In this document: one piece after another, positions 13,846 to 53,273 of the stretch | How the letters are laid out: every line of letters starts with the position of its first letter | Position numbering within the stretch: position 1 is the stretch's first letter | Source: an uncultured cyanobacterium | GTDB taxonomy: Bacteria > Cyanobacteriota > Cyanobacteriia > Cyanobacteriales > Microcystaceae | Direction: 5' to 3' | Assembly (NCBI GenBank): GCA_963807635.1 | Contig: CAWEDJ010000102.1 | Location: 1-57,787 of the forward strand | Length of the DNA stretch: 57,787 bases | The notes under the pieces: model-generated | Told to the model about the DNA's origin: nothing | The model's input: only the letters and a program-made list of their open reading frames with translations | The model's database searches: none | Program-made: the position numbers and the translations under genes

Positions 13846-13880
13846 ATTTGATTTCCATCCTATAATTACATATATGTTTT
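13838..13880 (+). promoter_or_regulatory. Putative tnsB promoter with candidate CvkR operator
   Basis: TTGTCG-N17-TATAAT (13838-13866) overlaps the last TnsB site. Palindrome ACATATATGT at 13868-13877 resembles the CvkR box AnnACATnATGTnnT with one extra central base. Confidence 0.5.
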
Positions 13881-13892
13881 ATAGATTGAAAT

Positions 13893-15530: not shown

Positions 15531-16320
15531 TGATGGAAACCCAGCTTAATATTGAGCGTGAAATTTGTCGGTTACAAAGTACCAAAATTGTTGAAGTTGA
15601 ACAGTTACATTCTCTTCATAAATGGCTTGACAACCAGCGTATCTGCCGACAGCCAGGAAGAATTTTAGGGGAATCCCGTACAGGAAAAAGTTGTGGAGTC
15701 AAGAGTTATGCACAAGAACATCCCCCTTTTCAAGTGGCAGGTTCCCATCCCATAATTCCAGTGCTTGTAATACAAGTCCCTCAAGATTGCGGAGCAAAGG
15801 AACTTTATACCCTTATTACTGAAGCATTGAAATTCAAAGTAACAAAAGGTTCAGTAGCAGACCTTCGCCGTCGAGTCTATAAGTATCTTCGGGACTGCAA
15901 AGTAGAGATGTTAATTATTGATGAGGCTGATCGGATCATGGCAAAGTTTTTTGCAGATGTGAGAGATTTTTCTGATCATCTCAATATTGCAATTGTGTTG
16001 GTGGGGACTGATCGCCTTGATGCAGTAATCAATCGAGATGAGCAAGTTAAAAATTGCTTTTACTCATATTTTCGTATGGGGGTGTTGAATCCTGTGCAGT
16101 TTGAGAAGACCGTAGTGATTTGGGAGCAACAAATACTAAGGTTGCCCATTCCATCGAATTTAACGGCCACGGCGACATTGAAGTTATTAAGAGAGAAAAC
16201 GAGGGGCTATATCGGGATTTTAGACATGATTCTTAGGCATTCAGCGATCCGGCCCTTCAGAAAGGAGCGTTGAAAATTGATCTAGATACCCTGAAAGAAG
16301 TCATGGCGGGGTTTGGCTAA
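15530..16320 (+). CDS. tnsC: AAA+ ATPase TnsC (1-bp frameshift near 16252, true stop at 16320)
   Basis: Walker A GESRTGKS, Walker B LIIDEAD, VLVGTDRL. Adding one G restores the typical C-terminus ...IRALQKGALKIDLDTLKEVMAGFG*, whose TAA overlaps the tniQ ATG. Confidence 0.93.
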
Positions 16321-16820
16321 TGGAAACGATTTTACAACCTTGGATTTATCGTTTAGCCCCCTATTCAGGAGAGAGTCTCAGCCACTATCTGGGACGGTTT
16401 AGGGAGGCGAATTGCTTATCTGTCAGCAGATTGGCGGAGGAAGCGAGATTGGGGAGTGTTTTTATCAAACGCCTAGAACACTTTCGGCATAATCCATTCC
16501 CCACTGCCTCCCAACTAGAAAAACTGGCTATTTTTACGGAAATCAGTCCAGAGTTACTCATGATGATGCTACCTGAGAAGGGGGTAGGAATGAAATTGGA
16601 GCCTATTCGCCTCTGTGCCGCTTGTTATGCTGACCAGTCTTACCACCGTCTGGAATGGCAATATAAGACCACTGAGGGGTGTGAAAAACATCGTTTACGC
16701 TTGTTGTCAGAGTGCCCAAAATGCAAGGCCCACTTTCCTATCCCGTCTCTGTGGCACGGAAAATGCCAAAGGTGTGGATTGAGGTTTAGCGATATGCAGT
16801 TTTTTCAGAAGTATTATTGA
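16320..16820 (+). CDS. tniQ: TniQ (short, V-K type)
   Basis: PYSGESLSHYLGRFR, HNPFP, IRLCAACY, zinc-finger CEKH/CPKC/CQRC. Confidence 0.95.
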   Translation: METILQPWIYRLAPYSGESLSHYLGRFREANCLSVSRLAEEARLGSVFIKRLEHFRHNPFPTASQLEKLAIFTEISPELLMMMLPEKGVGMKLEPIRLCAACYADQSYHRLEWQYKTTEGCEKHRLRLLSECPKCKAHFPIPSLWHGKCQRCGLRFSDMQFFQKYY

Positions 16821-16844
16821 ATTGATTCGGCATCATAATTAATT

Positions 16845-18266
16845 ATGATCTTCTCTTATATCAACCCAAAATATACACTTAGACTGATGAATAAAGGCGA
16901 CAGACAAAAACAAGGCCATGTATATATTTTGATTAATCAAAGCTATGCGGGGCTACTCAAAATTGGCATGACAACTCGCAATCCAGAAGAGCGAGCGAAA
17001 GAACTATCTCGACCAACAGGAATTGCTACTCCTTTTTTTGTTGCCTATCAGCAAGAAGTATCAAATTGTGAGTTAGTAGAGCAAGAAATTCATGCCAATT
17101 TATCGAACTTTCGATATAGAAACAATAGAGAGTTTTTTGAGATGCCTCTCCATGAAGCTGTCAGAATGATACCTCAAATTATTGACAAAATTGAAATTCG
17201 GCTAAGGATTAAAGGCGCATTGCCTATTTTAGACTCTTGCTACTGCTATGAAGACCAAAAATATTTTATCCAGAATTTTGTTTTATCTGCAAGAAAATAT
17301 ATTGCAGACATCGATATCATTCATTCACTCTCTATTAAACTGATTAAACTTTATTTTAATCACAGTTTTATTTTGGAAGATTTGAGAGTAAGATCAGTAA
17401 GATCTCAGGAACCTTACTTTATCAATACCTCAGAAACTTACTTGATCCCTCCTTCCGATATTACTTTTCCATCTTTAGGTAGGGCAACTCAGGAATGGGT
17501 CAATGTTTGTAAAGAAATCCCCTTTGAAAATATTAATTTGGATGGCGAGAAGAAAGCTCTAGAATTAATAGAAAAAGCCATTGCATCAATCACAGATGAT
17601 GTGAGTGAATTCGATTATGCAGATAGAATAATAGGTGTATCGATTGAAGATATATTAACCAGAGGAAATAGGGAAAACTTAATTGACTTACTTAATTTTA
17701 TAATTTATTTCATTAGTTATTATTTCACAAAAATAGATACAGATCACCATAATTTTATCTTTTATCAAAATCCAGAGATTGAAGTTTTGTTATCTAATAT
17801 AGCAAATGAAAATAAAAATATTGAAGCTACTTACTTAGCTTTATTTTGTCTATATGCGCTTTATGGAATAAAGTGGAATTATTTTCAAAATGAGAATTAT
17901 GAAAAAAGATTTCTTGATTTTATGACTTGGGATGAATCGGATGCAAAGAGAGAAACTATTGCTACTTATGCTACACGTTTTTTTTCGATTCTCAGTCAGT
18001 TTGATCAACAAAGTATTGATGATATTTTTAGGATTGTTTATATTGGAAAATATGAGAGATGTGCAAGTATTGATGATGATTTGTTGGTAGACATCTTAAA
18101 TGAAATGAGTCATGTCAATGAATATACAGGAGAGAATGATGAAATGATTGGTTTTCAGTGGTGTCATGACGAAGGAACAAAGGCGATGATTGTAGACGTA
18201 CTTGTCAAACTGAAAAATTATTTCGATGAGAACACCTTGGCTATATACCTAAAATCCTTGCTTTAA
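16845..18266 (+). CDS. GIY-YIG (T5orf172-like) nuclease-domain protein with unrecognised helical C-terminus
   Basis: GHVYILIN..LLKIGMTTRNPEERAKELS..TG..TPF..EIH..L..REFF. AT-rich. Start may be 16887. Confidence 0.8.
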   Translation: MIFSYINPKYTLRLMNKGDRQKQGHVYILINQSYAGLLKIGMTTRNPEERAKELSRPTGIATPFFVAYQQEVSNCELVEQEIHANLSNFRYRNNREFFEMPLHEAVRMIPQIIDKIEIRLRIKGALPILDSCYCYEDQKYFIQNFVLSARKYIADIDIIHSLSIKLIKLYFNHSFILEDLRVRSVRSQEPYFINTSETYLIPPSDITFPSLGRATQEWVNVCKEIPFENINLDGEKKALELIEKAIASITDDVSEFDYADRIIGVSIEDILTRGNRENLIDLLNFIIYFISYYFTKIDTDHHNFIFYQNPEIEVLLSNIANENKNIEATYLALFCLYALYGIKWNYFQNENYEKRFLDFMTWDESDAKRETIATYATRFFSILSQFDQQSIDDIFRIVYIGKYERCASIDDDLLVDILNEMSHVNEYTGENDEMIGFQWCHDEGTKAMIVDVLVKLKNYFDENTLAIYLKSLL

Positions 18267-18353
18267 TGCCTTGAGAATACGCGATAAGCTTATTCTCATC
18301 TATGCTTGATGGCTGTTTCGTGATGTTGGAGGAGTCTATCAAATGCGTAATTC

Positions 18354-18484
18354 CAGCAATTCTCATTATGGAATTTTGAGATAAATTTATTGAGAATGGT
18401 CGCAATAACGATCTCCAAAAGCCTCATTCTTTCGTTGTGAGATCATTGCATAGTTCTGTCTCGTGGTCAAAATGAGAATTGCTG
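18354..18484. mobile_element. 131-bp MITE with 14-bp perfect TIRs and 9-bp TSD
   Basis: CAGCAATTCTCATT...AATGAGAATTGCTG, flanked on both sides by GCGTAATTC (18345-18353, 18485-18493). Confidence 0.85.
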
Positions 18485-18573
18485 GCGTAATTCAGATACA
18501 ATGTAGCTCATAATAAGCAACTAAACTAAGCACATTCAACATTATAAAAACAATACACGCTGAGGGAGGTGCT

Positions 18574-19635
18574 ATGTTAGACACCGTAAACGACTCTAGC
18601 GTCACTATTTCGATAGACACGCTTTATGCTCGCCTTAGAAATATCGGCTTAACTCGCTCTACTGTCCGAAATCTGTTGTTACCAGATTGGTGGTGTGATG
18701 AATTTGAGCAACGAGAGGGAACCTTTTTCGAGGCGGCGGCCTATATCGCCCGTCGGACTGGCCTGGATTTTTCTGCTCTCATTCATGAGGATCAGGAGCT
18801 TTCTTTTCCTTCGGATTCGGGTCTTTGTTTCAAAAAGCGACAAGGGACAGAGGAGAAGGACTTGGCGATCGCCAGTGGTGTAGCGGAACAAGTGGCTAAG
18901 AGCGTCGCTTTTGCCTGTGCAAGGGAATATCAGTCAGTAGCGGGTTGGAATGCTGAGGCAGTTCGCAGGGAAATTCTATCGAAGCATCAATGGGTGAATC
19001 TGGACGGTTTACTTGATTTTTGTTGGAATCATGGCTTGCCTGTCGTTCACTTGACTAATCTCCCGTCTGGGAATGGACTAAAGAAATTTGACGGTGTGGC
19101 AGGGGTCTTTGAGGGTCGTCCTGTGATCGCTACTGGCAAAAATCATAAATCCTCTGCTTGGATGGCCTTTATTGTTGCCCATGAGCTAGGGCACATTATC
19201 TCTGGCCATGTTCAGGAAGGAGAATGTATTGTTGATGAAAATATCGAGCTTGATGGGGAGACAGATCCGCAGGAAAAAGAGGCTGATCGGTTCGCTGTTG
19301 AATTGATTTATGGGAAAAACAACGTGAATTATTTACAGTCAGGTTATTTAACTGCAAATAAATTAGTAAATTATGCACTTTCTCAGGCAGAAAAAGATGT
19401 TGTCAATCCAGCTTCGATTGTTTTGAACCATGCGTGGCACAAGAAGCAAACAGTTATGACGAAAAAGCAGCAGGCAATTGCCTGGGGTATTTCTCAAAAT
19501 GCCATCAAGGAATTAGAAGGTGAATTTCTTGCCGCACCAGAGATCATAAATCGTCGTCTAGCAGATAATTTAGACTGGGATCGTTTAAGTGACGATAACT
19601 GTGATTTTTTAGAGAGGATGGCCGAAACTGAGTGA
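18574..19635 (+). CDS. ImmA/IrrE family zinc metallopeptidase
   Basis: AFIVAHELGHI (HExxH) plus downstream EKEADRFA. GGAGG RBS. Confidence 0.87.
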   Translation: MLDTVNDSSVTISIDTLYARLRNIGLTRSTVRNLLLPDWWCDEFEQREGTFFEAAAYIARRTGLDFSALIHEDQELSFPSDSGLCFKKRQGTEEKDLAIASGVAEQVAKSVAFACAREYQSVAGWNAEAVRREILSKHQWVNLDGLLDFCWNHGLPVVHLTNLPSGNGLKKFDGVAGVFEGRPVIATGKNHKSSAWMAFIVAHELGHIISGHVQEGECIVDENIELDGETDPQEKEADRFAVELIYGKNNVNYLQSGYLTANKLVNYALSQAEKDVVNPASIVLNHAWHKKQTVMTKKQQAIAWGISQNAIKELEGEFLAAPEIINRRLADNLDWDRLSDDNCDFLERMAETE

Positions 19636-20321
19636 TTGCCTACATTGACAATGACATTGTTCTCAAGCTGTGTGCTTGTGATCTGTTTTGGGAAGCGATC
19701 GCGGCTCTGGGTTTAGAAAAAGAAAATTTGAGGGTATTGGACAGCGCTCAGTTCGTTTTTAGGGGAAATAGAAAGGTTAAACGGCAATATAATGAGACGG
19801 TGAGAGAAAGGGCGATCGCGGTGGTTCGTTCTTTAGAGACGGTCAGAGCCAATGCTTCTCATCCTCTGTTGGGTTTGAGTTTGCCTGATGTGGATGAGGG
19901 GGAGTTACTCTTGATTGGAAGGGCGATCGCCGAGCCTGCTTTTTATTTGGTGTCAGGAGATAAACGTTGTTTTCGGGCATTAGGGAGACATGGAGAGTTA
20001 GCGCAGGCAAGGGAAAAGTTATGTGGACGGGTGATCTGTTTGGAGCAGGTTATCCGCTTTTTAATTGAGGATCAGGGCTTTGAGACTATTCGGGATAAGG
20101 TTGTGCCTGCCTGTGAGTGTGACACCGCTTTGAAGACAATTTTTGGTTCTGGTTCTCACGCGGAAGAAAATCATTGTCTGGCTACGTTGTCTAGTTATTT
20201 GGAGGAGCTAGAACAGGATTGTCCAGAATTATTGGCTCCCTTGGACAAATGGAACAAGATCAGAAGTCCAGTGGAATTTGTAACTGACGAATGGATTGAA
20301 CGGCTTTATATGCCTGATTAA
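19632..20321 (+). CDS. PIN-like domain protein (putative toxin)
   Basis: PIN-type acidic pattern: AYIDNDIV, VDEGE, LVSGDKR. GTGA overlap with the upstream peptidase stop. Confidence 0.65.
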   Translation: MIAYIDNDIVLKLCACDLFWEAIAALGLEKENLRVLDSAQFVFRGNRKVKRQYNETVRERAIAVVRSLETVRANASHPLLGLSLPDVDEGELLLIGRAIAEPAFYLVSGDKRCFRALGRHGELAQAREKLCGRVICLEQVIRFLIEDQGFETIRDKVVPACECDTALKTIFGSGSHAEENHCLATLSSYLEELEQDCPELLAPLDKWNKIRSPVEFVTDEWIERLYMPD

Positions 20322-22191
20322 TGTCAGTTGGTTTTTCTGGGTTTTTATACTTTAGGATTCCTTCTGCAACTAAGGGGGCAAGAAATTGTTTACGAAGATA
20401 ATCTGGGTTCTTGTTAAGGAGCTGCCCTAATGTCTCTTTCGTCAAATAATCCTTGGAACACAGTTGAATAATGATATTTCGCATGATATTAGGCTGAACA
20501 CGGGCTTTTTGGCTGATTTCTACACATTGTTTTTGAAGTTCTGGTTCTATTTCCGAGCTTGGGTTATAAGTTTCCGAGTTCGGGCTATAACTCCCTGAGC
20601 TTGGGTCATAACTCCCTGAGCTTGGGTCATAACTCCCTGAGCTTGGGTCATAACTCCCTGAGCTTGGGTCATAATTCTCTAAGGTGGGAGTTATCGGATC
20701 AGAGGGTTCTTCATTTACTAAGGAATACCTGGTGCCTCGGCAGCGTCCTTTCTGTACGAGCCAACCTTTATCTACTAGGTTTTTGAGGCGATCGCCAATA
20801 TCTCTGGGATGTTCAGTTCTGTAGCGTTGAATATCTAGGTTGCTGACTTCACCGAAATTATGAGTCAAAGCCAAGATCATTCTATCCAGTTCACTTAGCT
20901 GAGTATAATTTTCACCGACAACTGCTTTCAGATCGGTTTCAATATATTCAGGAATCAAGCTAATCATCGGAAGAACAACGTTTGTCATATCCAGATCAAG
21001 TTTTTCTGAAACCAGAGGTTTTAGCCATTGTTGTTCATTCCATGCTCTTAAGATTTTTCCAAATCCTGAGCCAGCTTTCTCTCCTAAACCGAGCATTTGA
21101 AACATTTTTTGTAGGTTTGGGTTGCGAGGATCGCTTATTCCGCCCTGATAAAGTGCCTCTAAGGAAATACGGAGGCGACCTGGATCGAAGAAGCCATAGC
21201 GATCTGGCAATTTTGCAATCACTATGGGACGGGTTGATTGATGATCCGCATGAATCAGCGTATTAACAAGGGCTTCTCTCAGGGCTTCATGGACATGGGT
21301 TTCTCCTTTGCGGACTGCATCTTTTTCTAATTGAAAAGGCACATCTAAGTCTTTGACCAAACGACCATAGACTAAGTAGTAAAAGTTAAAGAGGTTTGGT
21401 TCCCATTTGCCATCCAGGGTTACGCGATATGTCCAGCGTTCTTCAGGATCATTCGATAGTCTTTCTTGATAATCCAATTGGTAATAAGGAAAGACTTCTA
21501 ATATGCTACGTTCCATGCCAAACATGAGTAAACCTGCGACGGTTAACCCCTCTTTTCCTGAATTGCGTTCTGTTTTCCAACCCCCTAGTTTTTGCAGAAG
21601 ATTTTGATCATCAAGAGCTAACCAGGGATGATCGGGTTCTCGGTTACTAAAGCGTTGACGAAAGGTTTTTATCGTTTCTGGATCGAGGGTCTTCCAGCCC
21701 GTAATCTTCTAGGAGTTGAAAATCCTGGGGATCGTCACTGGCATCCCTTAACATTTGTCGAACTTCTGTTTCTGTACAGTTGTAATCCCCTTCATGGTTT
21801 CGTTTATAAGTCCCTGTCATAGGATTGTTATTGATATAAACAGGGCGTTGTTCCCTCCTGGCTCGCGGAACATGAATTATCAGAATCGAATGCTCTCCCG
21901 GGTACAGATTTCTATATCGGAATTAGAGCAAATATTTGTACTTAATTTTCGGCGATTGTTATGAACGTCCCAAAATTGTTTTTGGAGATGTTGGGGATTA
22001 GAGACTCCTACAATCTCGAATCTGCCTCGTTTTTCCTTAACACCTAAGACGATATAGCCACCATCGGTATTGGCAAAAGAGGAGACGGTTTCCCAAATAT
22101 CATTGGATAATTCCCCTTCAGACAATTTGAATTCATAGTCTTGATCTTCGCCGATGTCTATTTGTTGTAGTAGTTGATCTCTCTCCATCAT
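20260..22191 (-). CDS. Schlafen/AlbA_2 plus HATPase_c_4 (RecG C-terminal-like) plus wHTH protein, broken by frameshifts
   Basis: N-terminus EDQDYEFK..ETVSSFANTDGGYIVLGV, C-terminal part ALREALVNTLIHAD, PRNP.L..MF..LGLGEKAGSG. The linking region is in other frames. Confidence 0.8.
20551..20674. repeat. 21-bp coding tandem repeat (4 exact plus 2 degenerate units)
   Basis: CTCCCTGAGCTTGGGTCATAA x4 at 20591-20674, encoding YDPSSGS repeats on the minus strand. Confidence 0.93.
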
Positions 22192-22241
22192 TGTTTCTCG
22201 GTTACGTTATACTTCTGTGTTGGTTCGTGATTGGAATTGCC

Positions 22242-23438
22242 TTAGAGTTCGCCTTTAAAGGCTTTGTCGAGGATGGAGGGGAGCAGGGCATCAAGTTCGG
22301 CGGCGGTTTCTGTTTGGAGGTGTTTAAGGGCATCTATTTTGTCTTGGAGATCGTCGAGATAGACAACGATATGGTGTTGTTCTTCAACTGAAGGAACTGG
22401 AATTGGCAATTTTCGTAGGTCATTTAATGAAATATTCGGTCTTGCTGTCTCTACCTTACCTTCATGAATAATATTTTGAGCGTTTCTACTGAGTAAAAAA
22501 TACATTAGGTAATGGCTATTTATTTTTGAGTAATCAGGAGAAATCACTGCGACAGCTTGATTTATATTTGCGTCCTCAAATTCTTCTACGACTACACAGG
22601 CACGACCAATTGATGCACCAACTAAGTTAATTAGAACATCACCATTTGTTAATTGTGAGCGACTTAATTTCTGGTGAAAGTCCAAAGGAATATATGTTTT
22701 TGAGCTTAAATCTAGCTTTCCCCATAAGACGTTTTCACTTCTAATGAAAAGTACGCCTGATTCTTGATAACTAAAGCCCTGCCAACTAGGAGATTCACCT
22801 TTGGTAATTCGTTGAGAAAGAGTATTTAAAGGAGATTTAGGATATTGTTTGAAAATAGTTTGACTATAGTTTTGTCTTAAGTAAGATATTTCATCAAGAC
22901 TTTGTTTTCGTAAGCCCCTTGCTTCGGCAATCGACGTTGCCAATTTCTCGATCCGCGCCACAATTCGCCGTTGTTCTTCTATAGATGGAAGAGGGATTTC
23001 TAGGTTTAAAAACTTATCTTCTTTGAGACGTACACGATTAGTCGTACCTTCACTAGCTACTTTACAAAGATCAATAAAATCAGGTGTTTTACTTAGCCAT
23101 CCAAGATATTGAGGAAGTAATTTTGCAGGATTGGTATTAAAAACAGGAAACTCATTAGTAACGATTGATCCGTCGCAATCAGAAGAAATAACACCAGATG
23201 CTCCGTGTCGTGCATCAATTCGAGAAATAATGAATTGTTGAGGACGAACGACTAACATCTTTTTTGCAGATATTTCTGAGCCTTTGACTAGACCCCGTTC
23301 TACTATTCCTTGACCCCACATACGCACAGTTAATAACCGATAAGTTATGTCTGGATCAGGTTCAATCCATTCTTCCGATTTAGACAGAATGTGCTGAAGA
23401 GAAATTTTGGGATAGGTCGTTATTTCCTGCCATGCCAT
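22242..23438 (-). CDS. hsdS: Type I R-M specificity subunit
   Basis: Two TRDs, each followed by IPLPSIEEQRRIV or IPVPSVEEQHHIV. Ends SILDKAFKGEL. Confidence 0.93.
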   Translation of the reverse strand: MAWQEITTYPKISLQHILSKSEEWIEPDPDITYRLLTVRMWGQGIVERGLVKGSEISAKKMLVVRPQQFIISRIDARHGASGVISSDCDGSIVTNEFPVFNTNPAKLLPQYLGWLSKTPDFIDLCKVASEGTTNRVRLKEDKFLNLEIPLPSIEEQRRIVARIEKLATSIAEARGLRKQSLDEISYLRQNYSQTIFKQYPKSPLNTLSQRITKGESPSWQGFSYQESGVLFIRSENVLWGKLDLSSKTYIPLDFHQKLSRSQLTNGDVLINLVGASIGRACVVVEEFEDANINQAVAVISPDYSKINSHYLMYFLLSRNAQNIIHEGKVETARPNISLNDLRKLPIPVPSVEEQHHIVVYLDDLQDKIDALKHLQTETAAELDALLPSILDKAFKGEL

Positions 23439-25012
23439 TATTTTTGTTTCTCCTTAATTGCAGTTTTAATATTACCTAAAATCTCTAAAATTTGCTGTTC
23501 TTTTTGCCAAATATCAGCAATTAACTCCTCTGGAGGCTTATGAACCAACACTTCCAAACCATTGGGATTTTTAATATCTAGATTAGCCGAAAGTAACGTA
23601 TCACCATCGTATTTGAGAATATCCGAGACAGACACCTTCCAAGCCCGATCATTTTCCTCTCGGTTATGCCACCACGCCAAACAATCACTAAACTCCTCGG
23701 ACTGTATCGGCTTCTTTTTCGTGTAATTCTTACGGCCTTCAGGTAGCGGTTGCTCATAAAACCAGATTTCTTTCGTCGGGCCAGACTGATCAAAAAACAA
23801 AATATTCGTCGAAATGCCCGTGTAAGGCGCAAACACCCCATTGGGTAAACGGACAACCGTGTGCAAATTAAACTCCTTGATCAACTTCTCCTTAATACGA
23901 GCGCAGACCCCATCCCCAAATAACGTCCCATTGGGAACTACCACCGCCGCCCGTCCCGCCTTGCCTTTATTTTGCTCAGGACGCTTCAACAACCGCATAA
24001 TCAACTGGAGAAAAAGTAAAGCCGTCTCAGCTGTCTGTAAATCCTTGGGAAAACCCGCCTTTACCGAAACCTCCTCTTCTCCCCCAAACGGTGGATTGGT
24101 CAGAATCACATCAACCCGATCCTTTAACCCCAACTCACTTAACTTCACCGTCAACGAATTACCGTAATTAATCTGGGGACGTTCTAACCCATGCAATAAC
24201 AAATTCATCTGAGCCAGTAGATAGGGTAACGACTTAGCTTCCTGTCCGTAAAGCGTCATCCATTGCAAAATCTCCCTATTTTGGATAGTATTCGCCTGTT
24301 TTGCTAAATAATCGTAAGCCTCCACTAGAAAGCCACCTGTCCCACAGGCAGGATCAAGTAACGTTTCCCCCAACTGAGGAGCCGTAGCCTTCACTATGAA
24401 CTCCACCAAGGGCCGAGGCGTATAAAATTCCCCCGAATCTCCCGCCGCGTCACGCAATTCTCGCAACATGGACTCATACAAATGGCTAAGAGTATGAATC
24501 TCTTCCGATGACCCAAAATTAATACCATTTACCTTATCAACCACATCGCGGAGCAGATAACCCGACTCCATGCGGTTTGTTATCCCCCGAAAAATATTGG
24601 CAATAATTTCCTGTCGTCCCTTGCCATCAGGAGATTGTAAATTTCGTAGATAGGCAAACAGACCTAAACCCCTAGTTCCGTAGGGTCTAGCCGCCTCATC
24701 TTGATTAATAAAAGCGATTAAATTTCGCCCCGTCCACACCTTAGAATCTGTTCCCCAATCCCGCCACCGATAGGGCGCATCAATAATCGGCTGATAGGGT
24801 TTACCTTCCAATAAAGCCGCCTCTTCCTGTACCCGTTCCAGATCGTCTAAAAACTTGAGAAATAGAATCCAAGTTAACAGAGGTAAGCGGTCTAAATCGC
24901 CATTTAAGCCCTTATCCTTCCGCATAATGTCGCGGGTGGACTTGATAATTGATCTCAATTGCTGGGTTGGGGTAACGGACTGTTCTGCGATCGCTTTTTT
25001 CGTTCTGGCCAT
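23438..25012 (-). CDS. hsdM: Type I R-M N6-adenine methyltransferase
   Basis: GEFYTPR, DPACGTGGFL, ILTNPPFGG. Confidence 0.95.
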   Translation of the reverse strand: MARTKKAIAEQSVTPTQQLRSIIKSTRDIMRKDKGLNGDLDRLPLLTWILFLKFLDDLERVQEEAALLEGKPYQPIIDAPYRWRDWGTDSKVWTGRNLIAFINQDEAARPYGTRGLGLFAYLRNLQSPDGKGRQEIIANIFRGITNRMESGYLLRDVVDKVNGINFGSSEEIHTLSHLYESMLRELRDAAGDSGEFYTPRPLVEFIVKATAPQLGETLLDPACGTGGFLVEAYDYLAKQANTIQNREILQWMTLYGQEAKSLPYLLAQMNLLLHGLERPQINYGNSLTVKLSELGLKDRVDVILTNPPFGGEEEVSVKAGFPKDLQTAETALLFLQLIMRLLKRPEQNKGKAGRAAVVVPNGTLFGDGVCARIKEKLIKEFNLHTVVRLPNGVFAPYTGISTNILFFDQSGPTKEIWFYEQPLPEGRKNYTKKKPIQSEEFSDCLAWWHNREENDRAWKVSVSDILKYDGDTLLSANLDIKNPNGLEVLVHKPPEELIADIWQKEQQILEILGNIKTAIKEKQK

Positions 25013-25034
25013 AGGAAAAATTCAAAAGTTTATA

Positions 25035-27893
25035 TTATGCCGCGTATAGATAATCCTGTAACTGATCCACCGCTTTCTTAAGGCGATCGGCTCCGTTAAA
25101 GAATTTAATAATCTCACTGATATTACCCCGTTGGGAAATGGGAGGAATTTTCAGGACATCGGGGATTTTTAATTGGGTCGGCCCATAATCTGTATACTTA
25201 TCTAACAGATCATCCAGAATAGCTCGTGCATCTCCCCCATAAGCATCAAAGAAATCCGTCTGATTTTTTCGCAACCGTTCCGCCCGTTCTTTACGTGTCA
25301 ATAAAGTAGCATTAAACGCTACATGACAGAGTAAATCAAAGGGATCAACCTCTGGCAACCCTAATGTCGCTCCCAAGGCGATCGCACTAATCCCCCGTTC
25401 ATCCAACTGAGCAATCAGCCATTCTCGTTGCTCTGTATTGCGCCAGGAAGCCCTTAAAGCCTCCGTATCGGGATAAATCTTACGCACCTCATCCCCTGTG
25501 TAATCAGCATACTCTACACAGCGCAAGCGATTACCATGGGCATCCAACTCATAGACCAATTCGTGGATAATTTCTACCGTTCCCCCATCTACATAATACT
25601 TGCGGGGTTCCGTTGGTTCGGGGGTCGGATGAAGTCCCCTGGACGACGAGGGGGAGAAACCTCTTCTGCTGTCGGATCAGTGTCCATTTCATCTTGAATC
25701 ACTTCTGTGTCAATTACCTTACCGTCATCATCAATGGTGGCTTCTTCAATAAAAGCAGGATCGCCATTAAAATCTGGGTCAGCAAAATGACTGGTAGCTG
25801 TGCCAGTGTAATCTAATATATTGAAAAATAGCTTGCCGTATTCTTCACGCACCCTAGTTCCTCGTCCCACGACTTGCTTAAATTCGGCACGGGAATTGAT
25901 CACTCGTGCTAGGACAATATTTTTTGTCGTTGGTGCATCTACCCCCGTTGTCAGCATTTGCGAAGTCGTTAGAATCACTGGGGTATCTGTTTCTACGTCC
26001 TGAAACTGCTCTAAATGCCCCTTACCCACGTCTCCCTCATCGGCAGTCACCCGACACACATAATTGGGGTAACTCTTCACCAAATCAGCATTAAGATTAT
26101 TTAATGCCTTTTTCATTTCCAGAGCATGATCCTGATCCACACAGAACACTAAGGTTTTGGCAAAACGGTCGTTTTTTTTCATGAAGTCCGTAACGTGTTG
26201 GGCGATCGCCTCCGTCCTCGCTAGTAAGGCCGACCACCCGATCAAAATCTTTGGTTTGATATTCGTCATCAGGAATTTCTCGTCCATAACGATCTAATTC
26301 CCCTGGAGTCGGTCGCCAACCTGCGGCATCCGCACTGGTTACAATCCGATGAACTCGATAGGGGGATAAAAAGCCATCTTCAATGCCCTGACGTAAAGAA
26401 TAGGTATAGAGGGGATTACCAAAATATTCATAGGTATCGCGGGATTCCTCCTGTAACGGGGTTGCTGTTAATCCCAATTGAATCGCAGGTTCAAAATAGG
26501 TCAAAATCTCCCGCCAGGAACTTTGTTTCCGTGCCGATCCGCGATGACATTCATCCACAATAATCAGATCAAAAAAGTCCGATGGAAATTCCTTATAAAG
26601 TCCTGAGCGACGTTCATCTTCCGCGATCGCTTGATAGATAGCAAAGTAAATATCCCGACTTTGTACCGCATTGCCCCCTTGAATCTTATAAATCGCATCT
26701 CCAAACGGAGCATAATCCCGATTCATCGGATCATCCACCAGCACATTGCGATCAGCCAAATACAAGATTTTGGGATGGCGAGGAATCCCCTGTAGGTTCC
26801 ATTGACTTGTCCATAGCTTCCAACAGATCTGAAAAGCCGTTGTGGTTTTACCTGTCCCCGTTGCCATCGTTAAGAGTAATCGCTTTTTTCCTTGAAGAAT
26901 GGCTTGTACAGTGCGATTAATAGCAATTTCTTGGTAGTAGCGCGGCTTTTTCCCACTCTGGAGATTATAGGGAGTTAATAATTTATTGATCTGATCAAGA
27001 CCTAACCCTTGGCTCTGACAATACCTCGCCCACAATTCCTGCGGTGTGGGAAAACTGCTCAACTCTAGTTCCCGCCCTGTAGTGAAGTCAAATTCAATAA
27101 TTCCTAAGCCATTGGTCGAGTAAGCAAATTTTAAGTCCAAGATTTCCGCATATTCTTTGGCCTGCTGTAATCCTTGATCAGGTGACTTGTAATTGGGCTT
27201 GGCCTCCACAACGGCAATCGGGAAGTCTCGACGATATTGAAGGATATAGTCTGCCCTTTTTTGTTTTCCGCGTTTAACTTTGTTACCCAGGGTAATAATA
27301 CGCCCATCGGTAAAAGTGCGCTGTTCCGTTATGGAGTAGGGATTCTGCTCCCACCCTGCTTGCCGAAGTTTGGGCAAAATATATTCTCTACAGGTGTCCG
27401 CTTCATTCATAGTGGTTAAATCAATAGCAGCAGGCTTGTATTGTTTACCTTTCCTCCGTGGCCTGTTGCCCAGCCTCTCTTCGATCTCTGCCTGCAAAAG
27501 ATCGAGGCTTAGTGAGGTAACACTAATGAGACCATCTGCAATATCGCTGTACAGATCATTTGAAGAAAATACAACAATTACAAGCTCTTCATCCCTAGTA
27601 TTCCACCTTAATAGATATCGCTTACCATTCTCTGGCAAATTATATTGAGGATCAATATCCCGAAGTTGCTTAAGGGTTTGTCCTGCGGATTGAAAACTAT
27701 AGCCTCGCTCTAGTAAATAATGAACGATGGCAAGATCAATCAAGTCTTCTCGACTGTAATAAACACTATGACCAGTCCCCGAAGCATCAATAGTAGGCAC
27801 AACAATTTCTTGCTTTCGCCAATATTGGGCTTGGCGAACCGTACAACCGACAATCTCTGCTGCCCGTTTTGTCGTAAAAAAAGGCTCTCCCAT
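25035..27893 (-). CDS. hsdR: CvkR (MerR-type CAST repressor) fused to type I restriction subunit HsdR (EcoEI-like), two apparent frameshifts near 26235 and 25620
   Basis: aa 1-~142 form a MerR HTH (FFTTKRAAEIVGCTVRQAQYWR..VVP..GTGHSVYYS). From M162 (27410): NEADT, ADY..VVEAK, MATGTGKT, DECHRGSA, LTATP, TTGVDAP, QVVGRGTR, DPFDLLCHVAF. Confidence 0.88.
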
Positions 27894-27957
27894 TACTTTT
27901 GCTATCTACTCTTTAATTAGATTCAACAATTATACAGAAAAATATTTGTAATTCTAG

Positions 27958-27987
27958 TTGTCATTTATAAAACACATATAGTATTAT
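27958..27987 (+). promoter_or_regulatory. Putative cas12k promoter with candidate CvkR operator
   Basis: TTGTCA-N18-TATTAT. AACACATATAGTATT (27971-27985) matches 8 of the 10 defined positions of AnnACATnATGTnnT. Confidence 0.55.
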
Positions 27988-28007
27988 AGATTTATATTGT
28001 AAGGTCT

Positions 28008-29834
28008 ATGCCAATGAATATTATCTCTATCCAATGCCGTTTAGTCGCTAGTGAGCCAGATCGCCAGCAACTCTGGCAGTTAATGGCATCTAGTCACACG
28101 CCATTGGTTAATACTCTGTTAGATCAGGTAGCTCAACATCCAGAGTTTTTAGAGTGGAAAACGAAAGGTTGTCTCCCAGCCCAAAAATTAGAAGAAATCG
28201 TCAAACAAACACGGCAGCAAGAGCCATTTGCGGGTTTACCTAGCCGATGGATTACCTCTGCACAACGACAGGTTGCCGAGATATACAAATCATGGCTTAA
28301 GCGTCAAGAGCAACTTCTGCGTAAACTATCTGGACAACAGAACTGGTTGGCCATGCTTCGATCTGACGAAGAACTAGCCCAGACTAGTGGATTAACCCTC
28401 GAAGAACTCAAAGAAAAAGCTAGAGAACTTTTAGAACAGGACTGTTCGGACTGGTTTGCTTTCCACCGTGAAGCCGAGGATGATTTGATTCGGAACGCGA
28501 TCGCCTATCTCCTTAAAAATGGTCGTCGCATTCCTAAACATCCAGAGAAGCCCGAAAAATTGGCAAAAAAACGCCGCGCAGTGGAGATCAGAATCGAAAG
28601 ATTGCAGATACAACTGGCGGCGAAATCTCCCAGTGGAAGGGATATGGCAAATGATCATTACAAAAATGCACTCGTGACAGGGGTTAGTAAGCTGTTTGAA
28701 ACCGAAGAAGACTTCAAACAATGGCAGGGACAAGTTACTGCTAATATCAAAAATTTGCCCTTTCCCGTTGAATACACCAGTAATGGCGATTTAAGTTGGT
28801 CTTTAGATACTCAAAAGCGATTATGCGTAAAGTTTAATGGGCTGGGAAAACTAACGTTTAAAATTTATTGCGATCGCCAACAACTTCACCTCTTTCAGCG
28901 TTTTTACGAAGATCAACTGATTTTCAAGCAAAATAAAGCAGATCACTCCCAAGCTCTATTTATGTTGCGATCAGCGACCCTTCTCTGGAAAGAAAGAAAT
29001 AGTAAGGGTGAGCCTTGGCAGGCCAATTATCTTTATCTTCATTGCTGTATAGATACATTGCTTTGGTCACAAGAAGGGACAGCATTAATCCGTCAACAGA
29101 AAGCCGAAAAAACTCAGCAGATGTTGTTGAAGATGAAAGAAAAGCCCGAATTAACCCCATCCCAACAGCAGTATCTAAACAGACAAAAATCACTTTTGAG
29201 AGGTTTAGAAGGTGAATATCCTCGACCTGTACATCGTTTGTATGAAGGTCATGGCCATCTTATTGTCGGTGTTAGTCTTGACATAGAGCAATTAGCATCT
29301 GTGGCGTTAATAGACATACAAAGGGGAGAAATTTTAAGATCTCGTTCTCTAAAACAGTTATTGGGCGAAGACTATGAACTTGTTCATCGATTTCGATACG
29401 AAAAACGTCATAATGCCCATCACAATAAAGTATCTCAACAGAGGGGAAAGCAAACTTCCTCCCAAGAAGCTCAACTTGCTACACACATTGACCGATTACT
29501 TGCAAAAGCGATTATTTCTTTTGCCCAAGAAAATTTGGCTGGGAGCGTTGCTCTACCGAAAATACGGGACATTCGTGAAGTTGTGCAATCACAAATTCAG
29601 GCAAGAGCGGAAGAACGTATTCCTGATAGTCAAGAACTCCAGCGACAGTATGCAAAGCAATATCGTATTAATGCCCATCGTTGGAGTTACGGAAGGCTAC
29701 TTGATGCTATCCGTAACCGAGCTAATAAACGAGGCTTGGTCGTGGAGGAAGGGATTCATTCCCTTAATAATACAGCAATAGAACAGGCTAAGGGAGTTGC
29801 CTTAAGTGCCTACGCCCTTCGGAATATTGCCTAA
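28008..29834 (+). CDS. cas12k: Type V-K effector Cas12k (nuclease-inactive)
   Basis: ISIQCRLVASE..RQQLWQLMA..TPLVN, LPFP, KIYCDRQQLHLFQRF, inactivated RuvC-I IVGVSL, AKQYRINAHRWSYGRL. Confidence 0.96.
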   Translation: MPMNIISIQCRLVASEPDRQQLWQLMASSHTPLVNTLLDQVAQHPEFLEWKTKGCLPAQKLEEIVKQTRQQEPFAGLPSRWITSAQRQVAEIYKSWLKRQEQLLRKLSGQQNWLAMLRSDEELAQTSGLTLEELKEKARELLEQDCSDWFAFHREAEDDLIRNAIAYLLKNGRRIPKHPEKPEKLAKKRRAVEIRIERLQIQLAAKSPSGRDMANDHYKNALVTGVSKLFETEEDFKQWQGQVTANIKNLPFPVEYTSNGDLSWSLDTQKRLCVKFNGLGKLTFKIYCDRQQLHLFQRFYEDQLIFKQNKADHSQALFMLRSATLLWKERNSKGEPWQANYLYLHCCIDTLLWSQEGTALIRQQKAEKTQQMLLKMKEKPELTPSQQQYLNRQKSLLRGLEGEYPRPVHRLYEGHGHLIVGVSLDIEQLASVALIDIQRGEILRSRSLKQLLGEDYELVHRFRYEKRHNAHHNKVSQQRGKQTSSQEAQLATHIDRLLAKAIISFAQENLAGSVALPKIRDIREVVQSQIQARAEERIPDSQELQRQYAKQYRINAHRWSYGRLLDAIRNRANKRGLVVEEGIHSLNNTAIEQAKGVALSAYALRNIA

Positions 29835-29882
29835 GCTGTTCCGATCTATCTAAAGATTTGCACCTTGACAATTAAATATGGA

Positions 29883-30101
29883 AACAACAGTGCCGCAGTT
29901 TATGTTCTTCGAGCCTCTGGACTGCGATAAGTATGGGGTAGTTTAACCGTCGGTAAACGGTCTTGCTTTCTGCCCCTAGCAACTGCCCACCCCGATGCTG
30001 CCGACCGATAAGGAAGGGAATTAGGCGCACCCCCAGCAAGAGGATGTGGGTTTACTACAGTGGTGGTTGCTAAATCACCCCTGATCAAGGGGGAATCCAC
30101 C
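29883..30101 (+). ncRNA. Type V-K tracrRNA
   Basis: Shares blocks with the ShCAST tracrRNA (GCCGCA, GCCTCTG, TCTTGCTTTCTG, GATGCTG, CCCAGCAA, ATCACCCC.GATCAAGGGGGAA). Anti-repeat segments CTTTC and AATCCAC. T-rich 3' end. Confidence 0.9.
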
Positions 30102-30349
30102 TTTTTCTTTTTTTGCGCGTCTCTATGGCTGTAAAAGCCTCTTTGTTACAATGCCGCTCTGTATCTGGAAGACATTGAAAATGAACAGGAGACTCCCGCG
30201 CAACAAAGGCAAAGTATATACAGCTTGAGTTTAAGCTTATTCTGGGATGATTAAATTCTCCATTGCTGAAACGAAGATGACTAACTGAGCAAAGTGTCGC
30301 GCAAACCACTCTTGAATTCGTGGTGCAGTTAGGCTTCTGAGGGCAAGGG

Positions 30350-30672
30350 GTTTCAATGTCCATCCCAGTTAGGGGGGGATTGAAAGATACTCTACCGCTT
30401 CCATACCGAGGAAGTCCCGCGTTTCAATGTCCATCCCAGTTAGGGGGGGATTGAAAGTGGCACGTTGAAGCCCAGGTACGTTGGCGTAAACGTTTCAATG
30501 TCCATCCCAGTTAGGGGGGGATTGAAAGGATGCAAGCTTGGCGAGAATTTTCATCTCAACCTGTTTCAATGTCCATCCCAGTTAGGGGTGGGTTAAAAGC
30601 TCGACTTTATCGAAGCCTGCCTCGCAAGTTATGCGGTTTCAATGTCCATCCCAGTTGGGGGTGGGTTAAAAG
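30350..30672 (+). CRISPR. CRISPR array: 5 x 37-bp repeats, 4 spacers (34, 34, 34, 36 nt)
   Basis: GTTTCAATGTCCATCCCAGTTAGGGGGGGATTGAAAG at 30350, 30421 and 30492. Variants ending GTGGGTTAAAAG at 30563 and 30636. Confidence 0.97.
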
Positions 30673-30720
30673 ACATTATATTATTGTGTCAATGACTCAA
30701 GCAATACTAAAGTTAGTCTG

Positions 30721-30749
30721 GTGGATTGAAAGGTAAAACCTTAGCCTTC
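30721..30749 (+). CRISPR. Delocalised homing crRNA: truncated repeat plus 17-nt tRNA-Gly spacer
   Basis: GTGGATTGAAAG (30721-30732) then GTAAAACCTTAGCCTTC (30733-30749), a 17/17 match to tRNA-Gly at 32836-32852 (minus strand) with a GTG PAM. Confidence 0.95.
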
Positions 30750-30767
30750 ATGATTATTTGATCATGG

Positions 30768-30880
30768 GGCGTTGCTGAATCAAAGTATGAATGTGAATTT
30801 TTCACATAGCCCAAAGTCAGTTTGAGTCTAGGTTTTAAAAATCCCATAAAAGAAGATTTATATTTAAAATCAGCAACGCC
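30768..30880 (+). mobile_element. 113-bp MITE-like element, copy 1
   Basis: Terminal IRs GGCGTTGCTGA...TCAGCAACGCC. 106/113 identical to the inverted copy at 32567-32679. No TSD seen. Confidence 0.8.
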
Positions 30881-31004
30881 CTGTCTTTTTTCAATGCTTG
30901 CTGGTTCTCTTCAGATTTTTTTTCAATTACTTAATGATGCACTGATGCTCTTTTGAGGCTTACGCCTTTTCTTTGTCATCGATATATTCACTACTCAATT
31001 GCAT

Positions 31005-31039
31005 AATGCACTCTCTGAAGAGAGCGGTGCATTCTTTTT
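31005..31039 (+). terminator. Hairpin plus T-run upstream of the recombinase gene
   Basis: AATGCAC-TCTCT-GA-AGAGA-GCG-GTGCATT followed by CTTTTT. Confidence 0.4.
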
Positions 31040-31075
31040 CGGTTCGTTTTATAGACTTTACTGTTTTTACTACCT

Positions 31076-32503
31076 ATGAATACAAAGCAACTTAATTCCG
31101 TTGTAGGATACGCCAGAATTTCTACTGAGCGTCATTTAGCTGATGCGGATGTTCTTCTCTCTACTCAGCAGTGTCTTAAACAGTATGGTGTTTCTTCTGA
31201 TCTCTTCTTTTGGGATATGGAGTCTGGCTTTTCTGATAAACGAAGAGGCTATGACGATATTTTGGCTCTTATTGCTCAAGGTAATATCCAAAAGGTTGTT
31301 GTTTATTGCTTCGATTATTTTCGTGGGAATACTTTGCAGTGGCAAGATTTTTTTGCTATTCTCTCCCATCAGAATATTGAGGTTGTTTTGGTCGGTGAAG
31401 GACGTTTTCTCCATATCGATGGAGTGGGCAATGTTCTAGCGGATACGATTCATCAATCTGTCCTGGCTAAGCAACGCCATATCAATCGCCAGAATTCAGA
31501 GCGAGGGCATGAGAAACGCCGACAACAGCAAAAGCCTTTCGTTGTTCCTTTTGGCTATGTTCTCAATGAGAATGCTGAGGTGGCTATTAATCTAGCTCTC
31601 TATAAGGATTCTCAAAAGAGCTATTATGCGATCGCCAGGGAACTGATTGATTGTTTTCTCGACACTGAGTCGGTTAGCCAAACGCTGGCTGCTCTTTGTG
31701 ATCTCTATGGATACAAGCGAGTTGGAAATCGTAATCTGGACTTCCCCCGTGATCCCAAGGCTTTAAAGAACTGGTTACTCAGTCCTTTTTTACGAGGGAC
31801 GCTCGTTTTTTTTCCTAAAGATCCCACACGTCGTATTGAGCATCCTCTTCATCATCCAGCTATTATCACTGAGAAAGAGGCTCTCCAAATTCATCTTATT
31901 ATGGAACGTCGCAAGATTATCAAGAAGACTGATACCTTAGCCAATCCTCTTATTGATTTAATTTTTTGTGCTGGCTGTGGTTCTCCTATGAAGGTTTCCC
32001 AGTCTAAAGGCAGCTCGAACTCTGAGTATCACTATTACCTGACCTGCAAGGGGGCTTACCCTAAAGTGGGACACCCCAAAGTCTGCGATCGCCGTTCTAG
32101 TTATGGTTTAGAAATTAGTGATGTTATCAGCTTTGTGATTGGAGCTTTGTCTCGTGCCTCGGAGCGCATCGAGCAGTGCCTACCCCCTGATAGTCTTGAT
32201 AAAGTGCTAGATACTCCTGAAATACTGGCACTCAAATCTAAGATTGAAAAGATAGAGGCTCTCAATTTCCCTGAAATGATTCTTGTTATCAATCAATTAA
32301 AGACCGAATTGGAGGGACTTATTGCCCAAAAGTTGCGAGAACACAACGAAAATAACTTGGCTTTCTTGGATTTACAGTCCATCCTTCATCGCCCCAATAT
32401 TTGGCGTTCTATCTTGCCTGAAGAGTTGAGGACTATCTGTCCTTTGCTTGTCAAACGAGTTATTTGTGATGAGGGGCAAGTCGCCATTGAACTTTTAGTT
32501 TAA
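31076..32503 (+). CDS. Large serine recombinase (XisF-like: resolvase, recombinase and Zn-ribbon domains)
   Basis: VVGYARIST (catalytic Ser), D.ESG....R, PFGY, HPAIIT, CAGCGSPM..YYLTC..C, coiled coil. Confidence 0.85.
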   Translation: MNTKQLNSVVGYARISTERHLADADVLLSTQQCLKQYGVSSDLFFWDMESGFSDKRRGYDDILALIAQGNIQKVVVYCFDYFRGNTLQWQDFFAILSHQNIEVVLVGEGRFLHIDGVGNVLADTIHQSVLAKQRHINRQNSERGHEKRRQQQKPFVVPFGYVLNENAEVAINLALYKDSQKSYYAIARELIDCFLDTESVSQTLAALCDLYGYKRVGNRNLDFPRDPKALKNWLLSPFLRGTLVFFPKDPTRRIEHPLHHPAIITEKEALQIHLIMERRKIIKKTDTLANPLIDLIFCAGCGSPMKVSQSKGSSNSEYHYYLTCKGAYPKVGHPKVCDRRSSYGLEISDVISFVIGALSRASERIEQCLPPDSLDKVLDTPEILALKSKIEKIEALNFPEMILVINQLKTELEGLIAQKLREHNENNLAFLDLQSILHRPNIWRSILPEELRTICPLLVKRVICDEGQVAIELLV

Positions 32504-32513
32504 GAAAAAAGAA

Positions 32514-32543
32514 TACTGCATCCATTTGGTGCAGTTTTTTTTT
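32514..32543 (+). terminator. Intrinsic terminator after the recombinase gene
   Basis: ACTGCA-TCCATTTGG-TGCAGT followed by a T run. Confidence 0.7.
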
Positions 32544-32566
32544 GCAAAAAAATCAATACTATTAGG

Positions 32567-32679
32567 GGTGTTGCTGATTTTAAATATGAATCTTCTTTTA
32601 TGGAATTTTAAAAACCTAGACTCAAACTGACTTTGGGCTATGTGCAAAATTCACATTCATATCTTGATTCAGCAACGCC
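32567..32679 (-). mobile_element. 113-bp MITE-like element, copy 2 (inverted relative to copy 1)
   Basis: Reverse complement aligns ungapped to 30768-30880 with 7 mismatches. Confidence 0.8.
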
Positions 32680-32790
32680 TAATTTGTTAATGATGACCCA
32701 AAAGAAACGACATTTAATGTGTTATCGCGACATTAGGTTGTTAAGACGACAGCAATTTGTTAATAATGACAAATAATTAGTTAATGTACA
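32680..32790 (-). repeat. CAST left end (tRNA/PAM-proximal) with four contiguous TnsB sites and a truncated fifth
   Basis: Minus strand reads TGTACA-TTAACTAATTATTTGTC, TTAACAAATTGCTGTC, TTAACAACCTAATGTC, ATAACACATTAAATGTC, then TTAACAAATTA cut off by the MITE. Confidence 0.9.
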
Positions 32791-32798
32791 GAAAAAAA

Positions 32799-32869
32799 AG
32801 CGGGCGGCGAGAATCGAACTCGCATCATTAGCTTGGAAGGCTAAGGTTTTACCACTAAACTACGCCCGC
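32799..32869 (-). tRNA. tRNA-Gly (anticodon TCC), CAST homing target
   Basis: GCGGGCG/CGCCCGC acceptor stem, anticodon arm TTAGC-CT-TCC-AA-GCTAA, GTTCGATT T-loop. Confidence 0.96.
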
Positions 32870-53168: not shown

Positions 53169-53273
53169 CTCCAGCTTAAAACTGGAGTTTAACATAGATT
53201 TTTAAGTACAACCTATAAATATTATTAATTGTATTTATTGAAAATCATTAATAATTTAGTTTTCATGAATAAA

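Follow-up and report, generated by a model that had tools for sequence, protein, structure and literature searches.

Introduction

CvkR, the repressor of type V-K CRISPR-associated transposons (CASTs), has been described as Alr3614 of the AnCAST element of Anabaena PCC 7120 (structure 7XN2; PMC9938897). According to the accessible text of that paper, arginine 42 matters for DNA binding by CvkR, no binding occurs at the core of the cvkR promoter, with results that argue against autoregulation, and an effector was not found, a protein partner being proposed as one option. The same paper (2023) and its preprint list four CvkRs that are fused to an hsdR domain without studying them, and in the accessible portions both report no evidence for restriction-modification (R-M) systems and CASTs working together. 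The available part of PMC12416283 leaves hsdR unmentioned. Here we analyse such a fusion of CvkR to HsdR, the restriction (R) subunit of type I R-M systems, which is encoded at positions 25035–27893 of contig CAWEDJ010000102.1 (assembly GCA_963807635.1) from an uncultured cyanobacterium of the Microcystaceae. The whole stretch of 57,787 nucleotides is called the window in the following.

Re-fusing the domains of type I enzymes is feasible in the laboratory, and regulator fusions are not covered in the accessible sections of the corresponding article (PMC6158711). The active site of isolated HsdR is described as shallow and acidic in the part of PMC2777439 that was available, which disfavours easy cutting without the motor. 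Among the records listed by literature searches, there was no study of CvkR-HsdR fusions or of a form lacking the motor, part of the supplements of the CvkR paper and preprint being outside our reach. The fusion itself is already known, and an earlier note on this DNA had rightly mentioned that MerR-HsdR fusions at CAST loci had been noted in passing, namely the four in PMC9938897. In contrast, the recurrence with HsdR only, the several partner lineages, the selection on both halves and the motor-less form did not come up in these searches.

Results

All coordinates are positions in the window, and amino acid (aa) numbers refer to the fused protein. The minus-strand open reading frame (ORF) starting at 27893, divergent from cas12k, has no stop codon behind its MerR domain and continues in frame as ...EERLG-NRPRRKGKQYKPAAIDLTT-MNEADT..., with an internal ATG (27410) at the start of MNEADT. 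Translation thereby bore out what the earlier note had said about the missing stop, the basic linker and the internal start codon. The parts of the fused gene are:

27468–27893, minus strand: CvkR domain, aa 1–142, with MerR winged helix-turn-helix (HTH), dimerisation domain and His42 (Pfam MerR_1, 7XN2)
27411–27467, minus strand: basic linker, aa 143–161, predicted to be disordered (translation, pLDDT)
27003–27410, minus strand: HsdR nuclease domain, aa 162–297, with E164, D215, E230, K232 and QxxxY intact (alignment with 3H1T, limits as given in the accessible part of PMC2777439)
25035–27002, minus strand: HsdR motor and EcoEI_R_C, split near 26230 and 25650 by indels of one base each (ORFs, Pfam, NCBIfam, comparison with P0004)

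Pfam places MerR_1 at aa 7–76 and HSDR_N, ResIII and DEAD downstream, and the match to the EcoAI/FtnUII HsdR family (NCBIfam NF046051) begins at aa 162. The first ORF piece scores 604.8 bits against a cut-off of 550, and the relative P0003 reaches 1035. The closest solved structure for the CvkR part is 7XN2, both in sequence (E 1.8e-17) and in fold (TM 0.79 on the target), and HsdR of Vibrio vulnificus YJ016 (3H1T) is closest to the HsdR part by the same two measures. The fold comparison was made with a predicted model of aa 1–300, which consists of two domains and a disordered linker (pLDDT <50 at aa 145–162, pTM 0.49). E164, D215, E230 and K232 align with the four nucleolytic residues of 3H1T named in the available part of PMC2777439. 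At position 42, the window lineage has His throughout, whereas free CvkRs have Arg in 126 of 142 cases and Lys in 12; the fused protein also lies outside the size range of 139–185 aa of free CvkRs.

Five database relatives of 948–960 aa carry the same junction in an intact protein, and public run X1 supplies a contig that spans 26811–27809 with seven letter differences and no gap, including the stretch at 27410–27470 that the earlier note had wanted checked for a stop or indel. The CvkR-HsdR junction is therefore genuine and not an artefact.

Further downstream, the earlier note had taken 25035–27893 as one in-frame gene and missed two indels. In the assembly, this stretch consists of three ORFs of 598, 232 and 174 aa, which rules out a single intact ORF there. 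With the relative P0004 as reference, the reading frame is lost near 26230 and regained near 25650, and the first frame ends after residue 598. The three pieces match P0004 at 79–82%, and distributed over them the nuclease E-D-E-K, QxxxY, the helicase motifs and EcoEI_R_C are all present. As a control, 141 ORFs taken from a genome of the same genus (20 stretches) were compared one way with the assembly of the window; 91 had orthologues, and 26 of these were frameshifted. The indel in tnsC at 16249 is absent from the contigs of three of four public runs, and the contigs of X1 and X5 over the break stretches of hsdR contain one gap per contig piece. Because about three in ten genes are frameshifted and the tnsC indel is missing from public contigs, the two single-base indels in hsdR are most likely assembly errors, and broken-gene findings from this genome are in general probable assembly errors. 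Were the window copy instead a pseudogene in decay, its sole product would be a 598-aa CvkR-nuclease-RecA1 protein and restriction would be dead. The two indels and the truncated or degenerate fusions found elsewhere (L032, L034, L045, P0134) fit such decay, but we regard it as hardly probable given the frameshift rate of the assembly, the near-identical public contigs with an unbroken tnsC and the motifs that persist across all three pieces.

Among 401 genomes of the order, 84 have a CvkR-like match, at 110 places, 15 of which have a frame of at least 290 aa, and all 15 of these frames combine CvkR and HsdR domains. A wider pool of 193 loci (one contributing search supplying the best 80 of 162) was reduced to 162 by merging identical entries and to 160 by dropping two unrelated metagenome loci, L051 and L052. 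These had come from a metagenome scan with the window-lineage alignment, and no cas12k was found on their short contigs. Of the 160 loci, 18 are fused, every one to HsdR. Of the 142 free cvkR genes, 74 are followed within 300 bp by a co-directional ORF, by hand assignment an hsdR in 18 cases, a methylase-type gene in 29 and another gene in 27. No methylase fusion occurs among the 160 loci, though methylase genes lie as close as 1–19 bp.

The fusions involve different HsdR partners, which are EcoAI-like in the window lineage and in the L034/L092 lineage, EcoKI-like (PRK11448) with the first ~230 profile positions missing in L031, L033, L035, L037, L038, L040, L041 and L044, and of a divergent HsdR type in L032 and L036. 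In the tree of the nuclease domains, a single clade of all fused rows was rejected by the approximately unbiased (AU) test (p 3e-38), and the free hsdR genes of L073, L113, L141 and L156, which lie between 11 bp overlap and 6 bp behind cvkR, cluster with the fused L034/L092. In the tree of the CvkR domains, the fused state takes four changes, and one clade of all fusions is not rejected (AU p 0.076). A single origin is thus ruled out for the HsdR part only, and since the CvkR tree permits it, partner swapping is an equal reading. These trees indicate that the architecture has been rebuilt with different HsdR partners, either through recurrent fusion or through exchange of partners. The joint might be a tolerated accident, in which the stop codon between neighbouring genes is lost and the two halves keep their own jobs with no coupling. 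The spacing of free cvkR-hsdR pairs, 6 of 18 of which lie within 11 bp, agrees with this, as does the model of two domains on a disordered linker. The restriction to HsdR would then follow from a low-level cvkR promoter that suits a toxic R subunit and not a methylase.

Many relatives have lost the motor altogether. A profile search at 150–525 aa, in which the best 8000 candidates were scored, yielded 74 proteins. Of the 36 that exceed 190 aa, 33 are CvkR-nuclease proteins of 269–318 aa; P0067 and P0068 are motor-less members of the window's own lineage. Above 525 aa, the 30 matches comprised 27 full-length proteins, the 598-aa piece of the window and two proteins of 676–687 aa. In 38 of 39 short rows, some of which duplicate one another, the protein ends 4–27 residues past the final proline conserved in the nuclease domain, and this end point equals the nuclease-domain boundary in 3H1T (accessible part of PMC2777439). 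Likewise, the catalytic D, E and K are intact in 38 of the 39. With at least five changes between long and short forms on starred tree branches, the tree indicates that the motor-less form arose at least five times. The suggestion of the earlier note that the fusion might tether the restriction motor to CAST operators fits poorly with this pattern, in which the motor is the very part that is lost.

Real stop codons were confirmed at five short-form genome loci and likewise at three further loci, and no motor remnant was present within the next 4 kb of the five short forms. A split gene with the motor encoded elsewhere was also considered and discarded, as the five genomes gave only other HsdRs with 26–48% identity and one fragment of 74% identity at a different, broken locus; in G497, no motor matched the query used. 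A 74%-identical motor fragment is found in L045 (G039:C48), where an EcoKI-like fusion is broken and its cvkR frameshifted; this locus lies outside the 160. In L032 (10972–12900), P0134 and P0135, proteins of 640–690 aa have Walker A and DExH lost or altered and keep the nuclease D/E/K; they are possible intermediates toward the motor-less form. In P0006 (347 aa), CvkR and the nuclease domain are followed by an HsdS C-terminal tail, and the protein looks like the product of a deletion running from hsdR into hsdS. In G706:C1, a complete genome with two CASTs (L216, L218), each CAST contains a 273-aa motor-less CvkR-nuclease gene.

ClpXP degrades translocating type IA/IB R subunits upon entry into a new host and following damage, which requires the DEAD-box motor (PMC3874165, accessible part). 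The fusion could accordingly be a proteolytic sensor, in which destruction of an R subunit translocating on an unmethylated chromosome, after entry into a new host or after DNA damage, would remove the repressor too and switch transposition on. The EcoKI-like and EcoAI-like fusion partners belong to the matching families, although perhaps simply because operons of these types begin with hsdR, as gene order suggests. We consider this sensor quite unlikely, since forms without the motor on which degradation depends would stay unexplained and restriction alleviation in cyanobacteria finds no support here.

Among 16 fused pairs, Nei-Gojobori dN/dS, given where dS was unsaturated, is 0.05–0.21 for the HTH, 0.05–0.35 for the nuclease and 0.08–0.13 for the motor, and in 26 of 29 long fusions the nuclease, Walker A, DExH and motif VI patterns are all conserved. 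As judged from these substitution patterns, both the CvkR and the HsdR halves are maintained by purifying selection. In motor-less proteins, nuclease dN/dS is 0.18–0.28 (p <1e-5, two lineages). In a clade of 28 members, mean identity is 81% in the nuclease, 75% in the dimer domain and 57% in the linker; D, E and K are invariant in 28/28, and 10 of 33 charged consensus positions are invariant.

If the joint were a tolerated accident, truncations would survive at the domain boundary because those proteins fold, and selection on the nuclease would be selection for stability. The nuclease dN/dS of motor-less forms, which exceeds that of most full-length pairs, and the loss of the active site in L036 can be read in this way. 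On the other hand, the common free form would be regained by a clean stop directly behind CvkR, yet the entire nuclease domain is retained in 33 of 36 truncated matches, and that D, E and K all fall among the 10 invariant of the 33 charged positions has a chance of ~0.02 by a simple hypergeometric calculation. An uncoupled accident thus appears to us unlikely, though it deserves to be taken seriously, and the joint looks selected.

In L038, no in-frame ATG, GTG or TTG occurs between the domains, and its HsdR must therefore arise as a fusion. The internal Met is missing in the full-length relatives L038, P0131 and P0132, the latter two having Ile. A universal internal start is ruled out by these three proteins. 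Within the window lineage, 7/7 long forms have the internal Met and 2/3 short forms have Ile instead, which hints weakly that the internal start is used; upstream of the ATG at 27410, the DNA showed no Shine-Dalgarno-like sequence.

Promoter-like sites and candidate operators, all identified by consensus match only, are found upstream of the two CAST transcription units:

27958–27988, plus strand: cas12k promoter-like site TTGTCA-18-TATTAT, overlapped by a candidate 23-bp operator at 27966–27988
13838–13883, plus strand: tnsB promoter-like site TTGTCG-17-TATAAT, overlapped by a candidate operator at 13861–13883

The operators that the earlier note had proposed at both promoters emerged as one 23-bp pattern at 13861 (+) and 27988 (-), with no other site in the 4.0-Mb assembly at ≤1 mismatch; the pattern was built from its own two sites, and an equally good shared 21-mer appeared in 2 of 100 shuffles. 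The cas12k-side site of the window has two mismatches to the published motif AnnACATnATGTnnT. In the EcoKI-like lineage, the published operator is present at 0–1 mismatch in nine of ten cas12k-linked loci, located at the cas12k end of the spacer and far from the fusion start. A test for motifs shared between the regions upstream of cas12k and tnsB, a weak test, was positive for three of five fused loci and few free ones, the match of L105 being a self-match.

The spacer to cas12k measures 108–138 for older-lineage fused genes, compared with a median of 86 for 116 free genes (three values of 217–218 and one of 51 look mis-anchored). This suggests that the longer spacer of the fused genes may provide a leader in place of a leaderless mRNA. 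It would also suit control like that by the C-proteins of R-M systems, another idea of the earlier note, in which the CvkR domain would regulate its own promoter and time restriction after entry into a new host. A -10-like TAGAAT lies on the fusion strand 17 nt from the operator centre, such that the operator may overlap the -35 of the fusion, a site that the promoter scan did not call. Against this stand the published binding data, which in the accessible text of PMC9938897 point away from autoregulation, and the position of the operator at the cas12k end in EcoKI-like fusions. Furthermore, a repressor fused to R could cap rather than delay R, and motor-less forms have no restriction to time. 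Control of this type is consequently very unlikely in our view. The further proposal that the whole hsdR-M-S-Schlafen block is expressed from the CAST promoter is weakened by a promoter-like site directly before hsdM (25062–25034), though sites of this class were at chance level (3 found, 5.5 expected). Overall, the interpretation given in the earlier note was sustained for the fusion and the shared candidate operator, and not for C-protein control, the operon on the CAST promoter or motor tethering, and the gene is broken as assembled.

No cas12k was detected upstream of the fusions in L033 (3440–6615), L034, L039 and L053, apart from a cas12k of L039 seen by translated search only. The fusion start of L033 adjoins an apparent transposon end, and its CvkR dimer domain contains an internal deletion.

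The fused gene of the window sits in a complete type V-K CAST of ~19.2 kb (13546–32790) with TGTACA ends at 13546 and 32785–32790. The other features of the element are:

13546–13790, plus strand: tnsB-side transposon end with TGTACA at 13546 and repeats at 13710, 13740 and 13770 (sequence; loose contig ends at 13545–13546)
13893–16820, plus strand: tnsB, tnsC (indel at 16249) and tniQ (Pfam)
20260–22191, minus strand: Schlafen AlbA_2 and RecG-C-like gene, frameshift-split in the assembly (Pfam)
22242–23438, minus strand: hsdS, type I specificity subunit (Pfam Methylase_S; PADLOC Specificity_I)
23438–25012, minus strand: hsdM, type I methyltransferase (Pfam N6_Mtase and HsdM_N; PADLOC MTase_I)
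28008–29834, plus strand: cas12k (NCBIfam NF038191)
30350–30672, plus strand: CRISPR array of five repeats of 37 nt (sequence; Rfam CRISPR-DR15, on the minus strand)
30721–30749, plus strand: truncated repeat and 17-nt homing spacer, matching tRNA-Gly at 32836–32852 beside a GTG protospacer-adjacent motif
32785–32869, minus strand: other transposon end (TGTACA 32785–32790) and target tRNA-Gly(TCC) at 32799–32869 (sequence)

An intact 634-aa relative of the Schlafen gene is present in L032. Between 22382 and 23478, related contigs vary in one or both target-recognition regions of hsdS with constant flanks, and specificity therefore differs among copies of the element. Directly after tniQ, 16845–18266 (+) encodes a T5orf172/MUG113-domain protein (PADLOC PDC-S57 match), a region that in a related contig of X5 is swapped for 284 other letters. 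At 18574–20321 (+), an IrrE/Peptidase_M78-like gene (weak PADLOC capP match) overlaps an ORF of 229 aa without a match in Pfam or NCBIfam; the two are possibly a defence or toxin-antitoxin pair in the cargo. An element of ~112 bp with terminal inverted repeats, resembling a miniature inverted-repeat transposable element, occupies 30767–30878, with a second copy read by eye at ~32570–32680. It has ten matches in the genome, nine of them near full length, and the two copies seemingly flank a gene for an XisF-like serine recombinase (31076–32503) inside the transposon end. The genome contains a second V-K CAST (G000:C40:450-6200) that shows the unfused arrangement: its free cvkR encodes 150 aa, and 50 bp further on lies a frameshifted hsdR-like gene in the same direction, with hsdM behind it. 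Outside the transposon, a cyclic di-AMP riboswitch (Rfam RF00379) is located at 53018–53172 (-).

Discussion

The reading that we favour, at about an even chance and argued from sequence comparisons, is that the CvkR domain represses cas12k and tnsB, that the HsdR part restricts together with HsdM and HsdS, and that the nuclease fold would serve the repressor as a tethered second contact to DNA. One protein of ~950 aa would thereby have two jobs, with an N-terminal CvkR domain that would dimerise and repress the cas12k and tnsB promoters and a C-terminal part that, as its intact motifs suggest, would be a type I R subunit completed by the adjacent hsdM and hsdS. Such fusions form by loss of the stop codon between cvkR and a directly following hsdR, or by a fused cvkR swapping its partner, events that have involved several HsdR lineages, and selection then retains both halves. 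The nuclease-fold domain would become an accessory of the repressor, most likely providing a non-specific, metal-dependent second DNA contact on a flexible tether, which would explain why the domain and its active site outlast the loss of the motor and of the R-M operon. In some lineages, including that of the window, free HsdR may additionally be made from the internal ATG.

Several observations count against this preferred reading. The window lineage carries His42 at a position where arginine is reported to be important for binding (PMC9938897, accessible text), its operator, seen at one intact locus of the lineage, is a variant with two mismatches at cas12k, and L053, of the same lineage, has no cas12k within 1.3 kb upstream. 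The free CvkR of the second CAST might repress in trans. As assembled, the gene is broken, conceivably by true decay. The tally of HsdR as sole partner describes a pattern and is not a test, because related loci were picked by similarity and long frames were fetched deliberately, and in L005, L017 and L175 a free cvkR is followed by an unfused ORF that starts with HSDR_N_2. The CvkR tree does not reject a common clade of all fusions. Among the short proteins, some database entries were perhaps cut at contig ends, QxxxY is changed in 4–5 of 39 rows (Q kept in 34/39, Y in 35/39), and L036 has lost its catalytic residues.

In a more active role, the fusions might be the source of a recurring group of natural regulator-nucleases, in which the dimeric repressor would bring two live PD-(D/E)xK domains to its operators at cas12k and tnsB and nick or cut there on a signal, and the full-length form would tie repressor turnover to restriction. 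We regard this as rather unlikely; if true, a nicking or cutting switch would disable, excise or guard the transposon.

For the question of how CASTs sense when to move, a recurrent repressor-nuclease gives a concrete, testable handle. What recurs is that the repressor takes one specific domain from the transposon's own cargo and keeps its active site once the rest is lost. With the accessory role that we prefer, the fusion would be the first mechanistic tie between CASTs and their restriction cargo, a tie said to be lacking in the accessible text of PMC9938897. Even if the tolerated accident holds, the fusion is still a clean case of repeated domain capture. The forms of 270–300 aa are small enough for direct expression and assay.

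Comparison with known systems

The window protein resembles CvkR (Alr3614) in that its gene is divergent from cas12k, in the combination of a MerR winged HTH with a CvkR-type dimer domain and in the candidate operator common to the cas12k and tnsB promoter-like sites. It differs by the full HsdR, by His42 in place of Arg, by the variant operator and by the longer cas12k spacer. With the EcoAI/FtnUII R subunits (NF046051; 3H1T) it shares a score above the cut-off, the nuclease E/D/E/K, the DEAD-box motifs, EcoEI_R_C and the order hsdR-hsdM-hsdS. Unlike these R subunits, it has a 161-aa N-terminal repressor extension, its relatives repeatedly drop the motor, and the gene in the window is not one continuous frame because of the two indels.

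In type II R-M systems, C-proteins are small, unfused HTH proteins whose binding boxes lie upstream of the C-protein gene itself. An HTH regulator heading a restriction gene on a mobile element is reminiscent of them, whereas the HTH in the window is of the MerR type, forms one protein with R and is known to target promoters of the transposon. MerR genes of the TipAL/TipAS type give two in-frame products, to which the MerR N-terminus and an internal ATG that possibly gives a free C-terminal protein are similar; in the window, however, the C-terminal part is a restriction subunit. FokI, a type IIS enzyme, has the architecture of a two-domain endonuclease. It is a structural relative of the HsdR nuclease core, as stated in the available part of PMC2777439. 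Here only the motor-less relatives of the window protein are comparable, in which a sequence-specific DNA-binding domain is tethered to a PD-(D/E)xK domain. In contrast to FokI, DNA binding is provided by the repressor of a transposon, there is no sign of a cognate methylase and the PD-(D/E)xK domain is a candidate nuclease only.

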